A stretch of 45,574 nt of DNA from Candidatus Micrarchaeota archaeon (GTDB lineage: Archaea > Micrarchaeota > Micrarchaeia > Norongarragalinales > Norongarragalinaceae), in NCBI GenBank assembly GCA_037444485.1, contig JBBIMI010000005.1, forward strand, positions 1 through 45,574, given 5' to 3'. The position numbers and the translations under genes are program-made. Under the pieces are notes generated by a model. The model ran no database searches and was not told where the DNA came from. It worked only from the letters and a program-made list of their open reading frames with translations. Within the stretch, counting starts at the first letter, position 1, and every line of letters begins with the position of its first letter. Positions 3,484-27,595 of this stretch are shown here, one piece after another.

Positions 3484-3786
3484 GTGTTTTTGGTTGAAGA
3501 ACAACAACCTGAATTCGTGCGCGTAAGAATGCCGCATCCAGGCGAGATTTTCGGAATCGTGACGGAAATGCACGGCGGCGCGCGAATGATGGTTCAATGC
3601 GTTGACGGCAAGACGCGTTTGTGCCGCGTTCCAGGAAAAATCAAGCGAAAAATCTGGGTGAAGGTCGGCGACGTTGTTCTCGTAACTCCTTGGAGCATAG
3701 AGCCTGAAACGAAGGGCGACATTACTTACCGGTACACGCGCTTGCAGGCGGACGAACTCCGCAGGCGCGGAATACTAAAAATCTAG
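3484..3786 (+). CDS. eif1a: Translation initiation factor aIF1A
   Basis: RVRMP..GEIFGIV, CVDGKTRLCRVPGKIKRKIWVKVGDVVLV.PW, KGDITYRY; GAGGAG RBS. Confidence 0.95.
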   Translation: MFLVEEQQPEFVRVRMPHPGEIFGIVTEMHGGARMMVQCVDGKTRLCRVPGKIKRKIWVKVGDVVLVTPWSIEPETKGDITYRYTRLQADELRRRGILKI

Positions 3787-4205
3787 TGCTTAAAAATCAG
3801 GCTGAAAAGTAAAGTTACCCTATCTTTTACCATAAACATCACTTATCTCTAATCATAAACCACACTCGTCTTTCACCAGCGATTACGCCTAACGCACGCG
3901 ATTAAGAAAAGTTTCAGCGAAGCTGAAATTTGGGGCGAGTATTTTTTGAGGCGATTCCGTAAAGCAAGCAAACCTTCATAACCGTTACTCAATGCCGTTG
4001 TTCAACACATTGAGTGAAGCGAGTGAAGCGAAAGTCTGCAGGAACGTGGTTCGAGCGTTAGCGAGAAAGTTGGAAGCTGGCAGCAGTGAAAGTTTAGAAG
4101 CTGGCAGCAGTGAAAGCCAGAAGTCGGCGGCGGCGGAAGAAAGCGCAGCAATAAAACTTTACGGGAAAACTTAAAAAAACTTAAAAAACAATATTAAAAA
4201 ACTAG

Positions 4206-4464
4206 TGGGCCCGCCGGGATTTTCGTCCGCCTTTCTTTCTTTTCCAAGGTTTTTTCTTTTCCTAAAAGAAAAAAGCTTTTTTTCAAGGTTTTTTCTTTTC
4301 CTAAAAGAAAAAAGCTTTTTTTCAAGGTTTTTTCTTTTCCTAAAAGAAAAAAGCTTTTTTTCGAACCCGGGAACCTTTCGATTTCTGCCTTATTCAGCTT
4401 GGTTATCAGTCTCGTTTTCCCTCGCGGGAATCGAACGCTCTAAACCAGGCTGAGCTACGGGCCC
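4206..4464 (-). tRNA. tRNA-Ile(GAT) with three introns: 30/31 (4411-4431, 21 nt), 37/38 (4383-4403, 21 nt) and 59/60 (4220-4359, 140 nt)
   Basis: Spliced 77 nt cloverleaf GGGCCCG TA GCTC AGCCTGGTTTA GAGC G TTCGA CTGATAA TCGAA AGGTTC CCGGG TTCGAAT CCCGG CGGGCCC A; BHB central helices CGTT/AACG and TTCG/CGAA; the 37/38 motif is relaxed; CCA not encoded. Confidence 0.88.
4245..4361. repeat. 3 x 39 bp tandem hairpin repeat filling most of the tRNA-Ile T-loop intron
   Basis: Units start at 4245, 4284 and 4323; each contains the hairpin AAGGTTTTTTCTTTT-CCT-AAAAGAAAAAAGCTT followed by a T run. Confidence 0.95.
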
Positions 4465-4602
4465 ACGCTTAAAAAATTTAAAAAAATTAAAAAATTTTGT
4501 GCAGCAAAGTTTTTTAACGTATGCAAATTTTTAACACATGCAAAAAAAGTTTTTTTTGATGCACGCAAAAGTGTGTTGCAAGTGCTACAAGTGCTACAAG
4601 CG

Positions 4603-7600
4603 CTACAAGTAGTTCGCGAGACTAAACTGTTTTTTTGACTCGTCTTCAAACATTCCCGCAATTTCTTTCTCTAGCAGCATCAAGCGTTGTTTTAAGTAAA
4701 GCGGCAGCCCGTATTTTTCCGCTATTTCCTGCGAAATCTTGAGGTATTTTTCGGCGCTTGCTTTGCTGACCGTCAACAACAAGCGGCCGCCGCACTTCAA
4801 ACACTTTCCTGCAAGTGGAGCGCGTCGGTAACGCGCGTTGCAATCAACGCAACGCAACGACTGCTTCGAATACCGCCGCAGGTTCCCATACAAGTCCGGG
4901 AAAAAATGTGAAATAATGAGTCTCTCTGCAGCGTCGCTCGCATCTACAGCGCGAATCCTCGTCATCAACGCGAGTTCGTCCTCAACTTTTTCACGCATGT
5001 TTTTTAACTGGACGTACTTAGTTTGCAGTGGTCCTTCTATTCGCGCGTCGTGCGTAAAACCGATTCCCTCGAACTGCGAGGGCGTGCCGAGACGCGTTGA
5101 AACCAAGTCGAGCTTAACTTCACTCGGGTTTGCAAGCCGCTGCGTCGCTTCGTAAAACTCGAGCGGGTACTCGCTGCATGCTTCCATCGAATGCGCTTCG
5201 CGGTCGATTTCGTTTGGGTCGAGCTCTTGAATTAAAACTAACGGCGCATCCATCTGTCCGCCGCGCGACGCCGGCAGGTAATGGCGTGAAAAGTTGAGGA
5301 ACGCGTCCATTAAAAGCATTACCGCGTCCTCGTCGCCGTCGCAATTGCGTCTCGTCGCGCAGTGCAAGTAGGGGTGTGCTAGAATTCCTTGAACGTCGCT
5401 GAAGCCAATCACGCGCGCGACGATTCCAGCGCTAGTGTGTGGAGCGATTACGATAACTGCTTGCCCAACTAAATCGTGGGGAGTTCGCGCGTTGTAATAC
5501 GCTGGTAGTCCGTAGTAATAAACGAGTAAGTCGTCGACGAACTTTGAGACTCGCAACAAGTAATCGCCAGCGTTTTTCGACAACACCACATCTTGGGGAA
5601 ACAATTCGATTAACTGCTCGTCGCTATCTAGCGGCTTGCCGAGATAGTCTCTCGCGTAACCCAATCGTTTCACGTCTTCAACGCTCGCTCCAATCTCGCG
5701 GGACGTAAAGTGCGTTAAAGGAATTTCGGTTGCGTCGTGGCGAATCGTGCCGTCGCGGAACACGTTTACCTCGTGCTTGCTGCGCAGGATTCCTTTTTCA
5801 AGCGGCTCTATAGTCTTGTCGAGCGAAATCAAGCCGACCACGCCTTTGACTGTTGAAGGAGTGAAGTTAACGCGTTTGCTTGCATCCTCAAATTGTTTGA
5901 CTAAATCAACCCGCGTTTTTTCGAAGTCAACCAACTTCCCGCCGCACTTTTCGCACTTGCGGCCGTCTCCGCGCTCGCGCTGCGCGCTAACGTTGTTCAG
6001 CGTTTCAACGACGCCTACGTCGACGATGTTGACGCCGCTTTCGCCGCTAGCCGCGTTTTTGTTTTCACGAGTTTTTTTATCGCGTGGTTTTAATTTGTCG
6101 CGTGGTGTTAACGCGTGGCACGACGCGCACTCGCTTGCAACTAGCGTTTTTCCGCCGCACGCGCTGCACGCGAACGCGAAATTTTTTTTTCCGCACTCGA
6201 CGCAAGCGCGAATGCTTGCTTCAACTTCAATGAATTGTTCGTTCTTGTTTTTTTTCTTTAACTCGCGTGCAGCTCGCGCGATGTCGCGCGTCTTGCCGCC
6301 GTTCCAACCAATTGGGTAGAGGGCATGCACCGGCGGCTTCATTTCGCGTGGCTTGCTTTTCTCTGGCCTGCCCATGCTCGCGCCGATGTACGTGCCTGTC
6401 TTCGCGCGGATTTTGAAGGGCGCGATCGAGTTTATTAAGGCTAGCACGTTGTTTTCGCTTTCTGTTGCAGGCGCCGGCGTTACCGGGTTTTCTATGGTGG
6501 CTTGTTGGCTTTGCTTGAATTCGTTGATTGCTTGCAGGATTTTTTTGTTGGAGATTTTCTTGGTTTTAGCGTCGAAGAGCGCAAGCGTTTCAAGCAACGC
6601 GAGCGCGTGTTCTTTTTCGATTACTACTTCGCCTTCGCTTACTGAGTGCGGCACGCACAGCATTTCAAGGATTTCTTTCCTGTCGTCTAACGGCGCGTGC
6701 AAGCGTTTGGGTTCAAACCAATCGTATTCGAGCGTGCTTTCGCCGAGGTATTCAGCGAGACGCTTTAATTGTTCGAGCGTTAAATCACTCCAAAAAAACG
6801 TGTGCGCTGGAGCTAGAGGCACGCCGGTTTCGAGTGCGAGTTTCTTCGCTTGAGCGAAAGAGAGCGCGCGGAGTTCTTCAATTGTTTTCTTGACTTCTTT
6901 CGCTTGGAGTTCGCGTTGCATCCATTCCTCGCACCATCCGGAAGGCGCGAGCGGGTGGTTTGTTTGTTTGAAGTCGCCGTAAGTAGTAAGCAAATCGCCT
7001 AAAAACAAGATTTTTTTAACGCGTGGCTTTACTTGAAGTGCTTCATCCACCGAGTTTACTTGCATTACTTTTCCGTCTTCAAGCAATACGACTGGCGGTT
7101 CAAGCGCGCTGCAAGGCGTGATGACGCACGCTTTCCCAGGCCGTTCAGTCTTCAACTGCGTGCCGAAAGCCGGAAAATCGTCGAGCAACGTCATCGCAGC
7201 CGGGTGCGTTGCCTTCGCTTGAATTCCAGTAAAGCGCGTGCGGCCGTAACGCAAGCGAAAACCACCTGGACGCATTGGGTGCGAGAAAATTGGTCTCCCA
7301 CCAACTATCTCGTCCATGTATTTTCGCAATGGTTTTATTTCTACGCGTTGCACTTCTTGTTTGGCGACTTTAATGAGTTTCTCGAGCCAACCCCAGTCTA
7401 AACCAAGCTTGCGGGCGATTGACAGCACTTTCGCTGCTTTCAAGCAAATTCCTTCACTGATTACGAGGTACACTCCGCCGCGCACGCGGTTTGACTCAAC
7501 TCCCGGAAGGTTGCGGTGCACGCTCACTTCGTAATCTTCAGTCGGCTCGCCATCAATGCGCACCGGACAATTCGAGACAACGTGCCTTACTTCATCTTCG

Positions 7601-13663: not shown

Positions 13664-13819
13664 AGCCCCCGGCGAGATTTGAACTCGCGACCTTCTGTTT
13701 CCGCGCTTTCACTCTTCTCTTCCAAGTTTTTTCAATGTTTTCTTTTTTCCAAGGTTTTTTCTTTTCCCAAAAGAAAAAAGCTTTACGAGACAGACGCTCT
13801 ACCTCTGAGCTACGGAGGC
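13664..13819 (-). tRNA. tRNA-Thr(CGT) with an 84 nt intron at 37/38 (13700-13783)
   Basis: Spliced 72 nt cloverleaf GCCTCCG TA GCTC AGAGGTA GAGC G TCTGT CTCGTAA ACAGA AGGTC GCGAG TTCAAAT CTCGC CGGGGGC T; CCA not encoded. Confidence 0.92.
13720..13783. repeat. Single copy of the hairpin repeat plus its T-rich flank, inside the tRNA-Thr intron
   Basis: AAGGTTTTTTCTTTT-CCC-AAAAGAAAAAAGCTT; 13720-13758 is identical to 27452-27490. Confidence 0.93.
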
Positions 13820-27451: not shown

Positions 27452-27595
27452 TTCCAAGTTTTTTCAATGTTTTCTTTTTTCCAAGGTTTTCTTTCTTTTC
27501 CAAGAAAGAAAAGCTTTTTTCCAAGGTTTTCTTTCTTTTCCAAGAAAGAAAAGCTTTTTTCCAAGGTTTTTTCTTTTCCTAAAAGAAAAAAGCTT
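27452..27595. repeat. Intergenic array of the same hairpin repeat (two 40 bp variant units, one tRNA-Ile-type unit and the T-rich flank) between convergent genes
   Basis: Units at 27481 and 27521 (AAGGTTTTCTTTCTT-TTCC-AAGAAAGAAAAGCTT) and at 27561 (hairpin identical to the tRNA-Ile unit). Confidence 0.95.

Follow-up and report, generated by a model that had tools for sequence, protein, structure and literature searches.

A probable three-intron tRNA-Ile(GAU) gene with two competing splice motifs in a Micrarchaeota genome

We analyzed a 45,574-nucleotide (nt) stretch of DNA from Candidatus Micrarchaeota archaeon (contig JBBIMI010000005.1, positions 1 to 45,574; hereafter, the window), in which an earlier interpretation made from the letters alone (the sequence-only reading) had placed a tRNA-Ile(GAT) gene split by three introns. 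Our results make it highly likely that this locus is a real, functional, single-copy tRNA-Ile(GAU) gene interrupted by three protein-spliced introns of the bulge-helix-bulge (BHB) type. The gene is 259 nt long and lies on the minus strand, running from window position 4464 to 4206; the sequence-only reading gave no strand. Throughout, position 1 of the precursor (pre-tRNA) corresponds to window position 4464, and G000 denotes the genome under study, whose assembly comprises 0.96 Mb in 58 contigs and is 95% complete. Locations on other contigs are given as contig and position (e.g., C4:21377).

At its 5′ end, the pre-tRNA has a GC-rich 7-mer, then TA and a canonical D arm; at its 3′ end, a perfectly complementary 7-mer precedes a final A. 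Between these ends, we delineated four exons and three introns, all on the minus strand. Exon 1 (window 4432-4464; pre-tRNA 1-33; 33 nt) covers tRNA positions 1-30, i.e., the acceptor 5′ strand, the D arm, and the first four nucleotides of the anticodon stem, and is conserved in our alignment of orthologues (alignment A1). It is followed by intron 1 at site 30/31 (4411-4431; pre-tRNA 34-54; 21 nt), by exon 2 (4404-4410; pre-tRNA 55-61; 7 nt), which supplies positions 31-37 including the anticodon GAT, and by intron 2 at the canonical site 37/38 (4383-4403; pre-tRNA 62-82; 21 nt). Exon 3 (4360-4382; pre-tRNA 83-105; 23 nt) covers positions 38-59 and contains the anticodon stem 3′ strand, the variable region AGGTTC, the T stem 5′ strand, and the T loop TTCGAA. 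Intron 3 then interrupts the T loop at site 59/60 (4220-4359; pre-tRNA 106-245; 140 nt), and exon 4 (4206-4219; pre-tRNA 246-259; 14 nt) provides T60, the 3′ strands of the T stem and acceptor stem, and the discriminator A73, without an encoded CCA. Archaeal RNA polymerase terminates at oligo-T, and a T6 tract on the same strand, 4 nt past A73 (4196-4201), is the likely transcription stop. Altogether, introns account for 182 of the 259 nt and the mature product is 77 nt long; the exons are 61% G+C, compared with 26% for intron 3.

All eight combinations of intron removal were generated by script, and each was run through ARAGORN. Removal of all three introns is the sole combination that gives an intron-free tRNA-Ile(gat), 77 nt long and with all stems fully paired. 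When introns 1 and 3 are removed, ARAGORN reads Ile(gat) with a 21-nt intron, and in the unspliced 259 nt it finds no gene. The spliced molecule has a 7-bp acceptor stem, a D arm, a 5-bp anticodon stem with a 7-nt loop (U33 and a purine at position 37), and a T arm with the G53-C61 pair and a loop beginning with TTC. Its anticodon GAU, its A73, and its orthology with the Ile-GAU genes of relatives identify the isoacceptor as tRNA-Ile(GAU). The whole pre-tRNA is also unusually stable, with a folding z of −3.78 and none of 200 shuffles folding as well. Thus, the three-intron architecture, with the intron sites and the 6-nt variable region that the sequence-only reading had assigned to 4206-4464, is borne out by in-silico splicing, by BHB geometry, and by the orthologues described below. 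An 82-amino-acid plus-strand frame over the same positions (4205-4453) was considered as a protein and rejected, since it translates the repeat of intron 3 into a low-complexity peptide.

We scored each BHB motif by its 4-bp central helix (H) between two 3-nt bulges, its outer helix (h), and its inner helix (h′). By definition, a strict motif has its bulges on opposite strands and both flanking helices, and cutting behind the second nucleotide of each bulge recreates the exon junction exactly; a relaxed motif has H, one flanking helix or more, and one proper bulge. Judged from the sequence, intron 1 falls under the strict definition (hBHBh′) and introns 2 and 3 under the relaxed one (hBH or HBh′). 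Specifically, the predicted motif of intron 1 has a fully paired H (CGTT/AACG, 4/4), bulges CGA and AGA, a 2-bp outer helix (AG/CT, formed by A23-G24 with C32-U33), and a 5-bp inner helix closed by a GCGA cap (TTCCC-GCGA-GGGAA), so that every pair, bulge, and hairpin listed for this “clean BHB” in the sequence-only reading is present. Intron 2 pairs three of the four positions of H (CTG/CAG) and has 1 bp in h′, and its outer helix grows from 2 bp in the primary transcript to 5 bp once intron 1 has been removed. Intron 3 is of the hBH type, with a complete H (TTCG/CGAA, 4/4), the whole 5-bp T stem as h, and no h′; the minimum free energy fold shows its T stem, H, and a 3-nt bulge, with the repeat arms closing the intron further in. 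The cut sites of all three introns are ambiguous in sequence because of flanking A runs, and it is the BHB register that selects 30/31, 37/38, and 59/60. The count of strict motifs (123 observed versus a shuffle mean of 5.2) is uninformative, as it is inflated by the A/T repeat.

The splice motifs of introns 1 and 2 (BHB1 and BHB2) draw on the same nucleotides. One side of BHB1 is formed by A23, G24, C25, G26, U27, and U28 and the opposite side by C32-U33, so this motif requires that the D stem be open. In BHB2, U27-A31 belong to the outer helix and C32-G34 to H. U27, U28, C32, and U33 are therefore common to both motifs, and introns 1 and 2 cannot be cut in one conformer, which confirms at the nucleotide level that the two splice structures are mutually exclusive. 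The sequence-only reading had gone on to propose ordered splicing, and this proposal holds in part. An order in which intron 1 precedes intron 2 is favored, because removal of intron 1 completes the anticodon stem, which is the outer helix of intron 2. The order is not obligatory, given that the two conformers are iso-energetic (−29.5 kcal/mol for BHB1 versus −30.2 kcal/mol for BHB2 plus the D stem), so that both are reachable and ordered splicing is plausible rather than forced; BHB1 is unchanged if intron 2 is removed first.

The history of the gene was reconstructed from 67 other genomes of the order. A first search, for an Ile-type 5′ end followed by CTGATA within 14-44 nt, found only G000 among the 68 genomes, because the relatives have GCTT rather than GCTC D stems or carry introns in the 5′ half. 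The uninterrupted arm GAGC-RY-TCGA-CTGATA, which is absent from G000, occurs once each in 44 of the 67 relatives, and 32 of these 44 places were examined. Eight hold intronless orthologues, 11 have the 37/38 intron only, and two have a T-loop intron only (99 nt in G011 and 44 nt in G025); a putative 3/4 intron is present alone in five and together with a 37/38 intron in another four, and the remaining two are cut by contig ends. In the 3/4-type genes (loci L085, L092, L097-L101, L103, and L104, in relatives G003, G014, G002, G045-G047, G038, G049, and G050), the acceptor 5′ strand pairs only if an intron lies at 3/4. In these genes, GGG sits 31-50 nt upstream of acceptor positions 4-7, which implies that a 3/4 intron interrupts the acceptor stem. 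In L092, examined by eye, the end of this intron and the leader plus G1 form 4/4 pairs in BHB register. Against the conserved tRNA sequence in alignment A1, the introns stand out as clean insertions, and the spliced product of G000 matches intronless orthologues in 61-67 of 77 aligned columns. The T stem co-varies, being CCGGG/CCCGG in G000 and GAGGG/CCCTC, CCCGG/CCGGG, or GTGCG/CGCAC in other orthologues.

The closest counterpart is found in G016, a Candidatus Micrarchaeota metagenome-assembled genome of a sister genus. Its tRNA-Ile(GAU) gene is likewise interrupted at 30/31 and 37/38, by introns that begin and end with the same nucleotides as those of G000, and ARAGORN calls its in-silico spliced product Ile(gat). 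The BHB scores (H, h, h′) are (4, 2, 3) for the first intron and (3, 2→5, 5) for the second, and the gene has the same conflict between BHB1 and BHB2, which indicates that the conflict is tolerated over evolutionary time. The differences are that G016 lacks a T-loop intron, that its intron 1 is 46 nt long versus 21 nt here, that its 25-nt intron 2 has a 5-bp inner helix, and that its variable loop has 5 nt. A 19-mer made of the end of intron 1, exon 2, and the start of intron 2 occurs in tRNA context only in G000 and G016; a scan for this junction in metagenomes returned four loci, namely one G016-type gene cut by a contig end and three loci outside tRNA context, and the corresponding scan of genome contigs returned only the G016 record. 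Since G016 has both introns, introns 1 and 2 are inherited. No resolved orthologue among the relatives has three introns. Across the order, therefore, the gene carries zero, one, or two introns at four sites (3/4, 30/31, 37/38, and 59/60) and three in G000, a series that could date intron gains and losses.

Two further points arose from this comparison. Duplication of the palindromic TTCGAA T loop was considered as an origin of 59/60 introns and was rejected as a general rule, because the T-loop intron of G011 pairs TTCA with TGGA, which is not a duplicate. Also, in L100 and L104 (G038 and G050) and in L054 (G018), an A/T hairpin lies downstream of a complete tRNA gene and is followed by a second copy of its last ~14 nt (T60-A73), at a spacing of ~150 nt by eye in L104; this arrangement resembles an att-type duplication or a stranded cassette of intron plus 3′ exon.

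With regard to copy number, G000 contains only one Ile-type 5′ end. A search of G000 for YTGATR loops with a 5-bp stem and an insert of either 0 or 11-300 nt gave 42 candidates near a T-loop-like motif, none of them with a D arm or acceptor context. No other Ile-GAT gene, for which the sequence-only reading had advised a check, was found in the 95%-complete assembly. The tRNA-Ile(UAU) gene is separate (C3:41892-42005) and is mislabeled as Ala by ARAGORN.

The suggestion that standard finders may miss the gene proved correct for both programs used. ARAGORN, with and without its intron mode, reports no tRNA at the unspliced locus, and Rfam/Infernal gives no RF00005 match there, either at the gathering threshold or at E ≤ 10; failure of the unspliced locus to reach the gathering score of the covariance model is expected with three introns, and the intronless orthologues score 67.5 and 67.9 bits with the same Rfam tRNA model. 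Over 3900-4800, the Rfam search at E ≤ 10 returned 61 weak matches, none to tRNA; the best of them (RUF1, 35.3 bits against a threshold of 70) was dismissed together with the others as low-complexity chance. The only detectable gene for a tRNA reading AUU and AUC is thus invisible to ARAGORN and Rfam, and automated annotation would report tRNA-Ile(GAU) as lacking.

The enzymes needed for such splicing are encoded in G000. Its one splicing-endonuclease gene encodes a 388-residue EndA candidate that matches the ARMAN-2 ε2 enzyme (PDB 4fz2_A) nearly end to end (phmmer E = 7e-128, residues 13-388 versus 13-387). Pfam finds both the endonuclease catalytic domain and the N-terminal domain (PF01974 in two stretches and PF02778), and the Tyr-Lys pair aligned with Y160/K161, the specificity-loop residues that were mutated in ARMAN-2 EndA (PMC12397907), is conserved. 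By these features, the protein is a full-length homologue of the ARMAN-2 type with three-unit ε2 architecture, and this match is part of the basis on which G000 is placed in the Micrarchaeota. The published ARMAN-2 enzyme cuts strict 37/38 and relaxed 59/60 motifs in vitro (PMC3239211), and cleavage of both motif classes is described for it (PMC3239211, PMC12397907); by analogy, the G000 enzyme may have the broad specificity that the sequence-only reading had considered necessary. The ligase RtcB is also encoded (E = 1.7e-149). Its match positions 43-426 lie in one open frame of 394 amino acids (C30:2925-4321, plus strand), and the matches to positions 1-27 and 26-90 fall in other, stop-containing frames; a frameshift, an interrupted 5′ end, or an error of assembly could account for this.

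These components suggest the following pathway. The 259-nt precursor would be transcribed from the A/T-rich upstream region and would end at the T6 tract after A73. The homodimeric three-unit ε2 endonuclease would cut within the 3-nt bulges of each BHB motif; intron 3, held by the T stem and the TTCG/CGAA helix, would be structurally independent, while introns 1 and 2 would compete for their four shared nucleotides and be cut in separate conformers, with intron 1 favored to go first. RtcB would then join the exons, and CCA would be added post-transcriptionally. The upstream region, where the promoter of the gene should lie, contains private short tandem repeats with periods of 9 and 17 (window 4469-4497 and 4511-4544).

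Intron 3 is largely built from a repeat. Tandem Repeats Finder detects an array at 4240-4362 (minus strand) with a period of 39, 3.2 copies, and 98% matches, each 39-nt unit being a T6CT4/A4GA6 hairpin. A 29-nt core of this unit is present three times in the intron (4248-4276, 4287-4315, and 4326-4354) and, allowing up to two mismatches, in 18 copies at 14 loci of G000. The 67 relatives yield a single two-mismatch match, and viral contigs yield none. The content of intron 3 is young, and the core is amplified in G000 only.

Nine of the 14 core loci are introns of tRNA genes, located in the T loop, at 37/38, or in the anticodon stem. The hosts are Ile-GAU, a Thr-CGU gene elsewhere in the window, two Val genes, Pro, a gene read as Arg-GCG, and three others, so the core constitutes an intron family shared between tRNA genes of different identities and at different positions. 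Two more loci lie in the 23S rRNA region of C12 (15359-15387 and 18397-18425), where the Rfam matches are broken by long insertions. The remaining three follow open reading frames (ORFs): two were verified after the stops of 281- and 136-codon frames, and the third is in an array starting at TAA. In all 11 RNA-gene loci, the core is co-oriented with the host RNA. More broadly, arrays of the A/T hairpin module are found at, or within a few bases of, ORF stops in the window (27474-27593, minus strand, directly after the TAA of the 281-codon frame) and at C29:8110-8138, C29:6675-6802, and C16:9145-9313, the last being an example of the arrays formed by a related second module. These post-ORF arrays resemble terminator hairpins that belong, with the intron repeats, to one family. 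Because the core also occurs outside introns, its sharing does not by itself demonstrate transposition of whole introns.

A more speculative idea, which we consider doubtful but worth stating, is that the 39-nt A/T hairpin might be a mobile module, specific to this lineage and still active, whose copies spread in the sense direction of the transcripts that host them. If so, introns would grow as the module duplicates in tandem, the 59/60 intron of Ile-GAU may owe its origin to the module and postdate the divergence from the G016 lineage, and G000 would be a live case of archaeal tRNA intron gain. With a T6CT4 tract in each unit, the module may then also attenuate or split the transcription of interrupted tRNA genes.

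The repeat is also found in a second gene that shares sequence with the Ile-GAU locus. This tRNA gene (C1:107901-108251, minus strand) has the same acceptor and T stem but carries G73, and its anticodon loop reads GCG (Arg) by eye. Its anticodon region contains an insertion, its T loop is interrupted by an intron of ~230 nt (by eye) with three tandem repeat units, and its D stem looks poorly paired.

Several observations weigh against an intact three-intron gene and have to be set against alternative explanations. The motif of intron 2 is weak (3/4 in H, 1 bp in h′, and 2 bp in the outer helix while intron 1 is still in place). A variable loop of 6 nt is unusual, though it recurs in the G025 orthologue. 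The three T6 tracts in intron 3 are similar to the tract presumed to terminate the gene itself, and archaeal RNA polymerase should stop at them prematurely. A look for RNA runs covering window 3600-5400 returned none, and an assembly that is 95% complete leaves room for a second Ile-GAU gene. Lastly, unitigs of the probable source run cover 3600-4261 and 4333-5400, with short repeat contigs between them. The weak motif of intron 2, the T6 tracts, and the incomplete assembly could be read as signs of decay, i.e., of a silent pseudogene overrun by the repeat, with the working Ile-GAU gene in the unassembled 5% of a genome in 58 contigs. We regard such decay as very improbable, because the spliced product has perfect pairing in every stem and keeps its conserved tRNA positions, because all three introns retain their splice motifs, and because no second GAT arm was found in G000. 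In addition, T runs of at least 5 occur in introns of 12 of the 13 intron-containing tRNA genes inspected, including both Val genes, which makes them a genome-wide condition rather than the mark of one dead gene. The same module also sits where ORF terminators are expected.

The T6CT4 tracts, three of them in the sense strand of intron 3, could alternatively mean that transcription ends within the intron, that exon 4 has a transcript of its own starting in the A/T-rich intron, and that the complementary repeat arms and the BHB allow the two RNAs to be spliced together in trans, as in the split tRNAs of Nanoarchaeum. The occurrence of the module directly after ORF stops, where a terminator is expected, and the ability of the repeat arms to pair in several registers are compatible with such a split gene, for which we nonetheless see marginally less chance than for decay. 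No promoter is identifiable for exon 4, and all four exons are contiguous and co-oriented within 259 nt, unlike those of a split, trans-spliced gene; moreover, the intact hBH motif with its T stem is of the type that ARMAN-2 EndA is reported to cut in cis (PMC3239211). Least credible of all is a different splicing pattern, in which one 42-nt intron (pre-tRNA 41-82) replaces introns 1 and 2 and produces an Ile-bodied tRNA with the anticodon CCC. This excision has a relaxed hBH motif of its own (H 3/4, h 5, h′ 0), and ARAGORN offers CCC and CCA readings for partly spliced forms. However, its 5′ cut would fall in the GCGA loop of the strict intron 1 hairpin, an intronless tRNA-Gly(CCC) gene exists at C43:1164-1234, the orthologues in 44 of 67 relatives and the one in G016 all read GAT, and the genome would be left with no Ile-GAU.

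Of the alternatives, an assembly artefact in intron 3 carries the most weight, although we still consider it unlikely. The number of repeat units could be wrong, or two gene halves could have been joined through the repeat, which is present at 13 other loci, among them the C1 gene with its identical T stem and acceptor. Four DNA runs compared over the region show no joints, and the unitigs break in the repeat (4262-4332), where the depth is ~250-300 versus ~24-27 in the flanks. Given this break, it is the original assembly that supplies the copy number and, strictly speaking, also the connection of exon 4 to exons 1-3. The flanks themselves speak for a correct join: both unitigs enter the repeat from unique sequence in the expected orientation, and the array, at 123 nt, is probably spannable by single reads. 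Furthermore, the genome has just two copies of the 13-mer of exon 4; the copy at this locus precedes A73, and the one at C1:107902, on the GCG (Arg, by eye) gene, precedes G73. A73 is present in every resolved Ile-GAU orthologue, with the reservation that later scans required A at that position. A contiguous, functional three-intron tRNA-Ile(GAU) gene therefore remains the reading that best accounts for the data.

Interrupted RNA genes are common elsewhere in G000. Genome-wide, tRNA matches number from 24 (Rfam) to 32 (ARAGORN), and only nine are intronless. In the window, the only tRNA found by Rfam is tRNA-Thr(CGT) (13664-13819, minus strand; 55.5 bits), which has an 84-nt intron at 37/38 with one copy of the repeat core (13753-13781). 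Five further candidates with T-loop introns of the 59/60 type were located at C4:21377-21527, C19:6896-7162, C8:8475-8631, C12:20610-20790, and C14:2034-2239; they are Val-CAC, Val-TAC, Ala-TGC, and two others, all have the TTCGA T loop, and all five were missed by ARAGORN and Rfam. T-loop introns are present in seven G000 tRNA candidates, each of which has G57. Two tRNA genes with different acceptor stems (C4:28735-28936, plus strand, and C21:8185-8419, minus strand) share a long intron that is near-identical up to and including both of its ends; in each gene, it follows the same GGC within the anticodon stem 5′ strand. A genome-wide scan for acceptor pairs gave 3337 unfiltered candidates and 59 after D-arm filters; these include chance matches and fall short of a full census of tRNA genes. 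Heavy interruption extends to the rRNA operon (locus L107, 5289-9366 and 10764-13722), with a small-subunit match of 2959 nt for a 1478-position model and a large-subunit match in pieces.

Multi-intron tRNA genes, 59/60 introns, ε2 EndA, and introns shared between tRNAs are already in print (PMC3239211, PMC4033280, PMC4090602), and the present locus is an extreme case of a known kind: three introns in Ile-GAU, in a Micrarchaeota genome, with two competing splice motifs. In the Thermoproteales, tRNA genes with three introns and intron families shared between tRNAs have been described (Sugahara 2008 and Fujishima 2010, as cited in PMC4033280 and PMC4090602). According to these accounts, the two systems are alike in the number of BHB introns that one gene can carry (as many as three, at both canonical and non-canonical positions), in similar introns across tRNA species, and in the tie to a broad-specificity endonuclease. 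They differ in phylum and in enzyme, (αβ)2 there versus ε2 here, and in that the shared sequence here is a short hairpin module that also occurs in 23S rRNA insertions and after ORF stops and is not intron-specific. A eukaryotic isoleucine tRNA with three introns is, as described, similar in intron count and in having one T-arm intron, whereas its isoacceptor and its intron positions are different, and no descent is implied. Another published multi-intron set likewise has several introns per gene at BHB-competent sites, some of them missed by standard annotators; here, by comparison with its published description, different genes visibly have intron content in common, owing to a recently amplified module. 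For a repeat-built T-loop intron, and for a genome-specific module in tRNA introns, rRNA introns, and ORF 3′ ends, we could not find a precedent: literature searches on Micrarchaeota tRNA introns and on intron transposition in the DPANN archaea turned up nothing on repeat-filled introns, and supplementary tables may bear on this. Such an intron shows how intron content turns over, a question that a 2026 Asgard census, according to its abstract, left open.

The closest published system is that of Candidatus Micrarchaeum acidiphilum ARMAN-2, in which 56% of the tRNA genes are reported to be interrupted, some of them twice (PMC3239211). The disrupted tRNAs named there include Cys(GCA) with a 59/60 hBH intron, Pro(GGG) with introns at 53/54 and 59/60, and Ile(UAU) with an intron at 37/38 (Fujishima et al. 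2011, PMC3239211). G000 belongs to the same phylum-level lineage and shares with ARMAN-2, as described, the ε2 EndA, the 59/60 hBH site, the mixture of strict and relaxed BHB motifs, and the interruption of a majority of tRNA genes. It differs in having three introns in one gene, compared with at most two named there, in the isoacceptor affected, Ile-GAU not being mentioned in the main text of that study, and in the T-loop intron, which here consists of 140 nt with tandem repeats versus 13 nt in the ARMAN-2 Cys gene. Altogether, the locus extends the published ARMAN-2 picture, in which an ε2 endonuclease accompanies heavily interrupted tRNA genes, to a gene with three introns and two motifs that compete for the same nucleotides.

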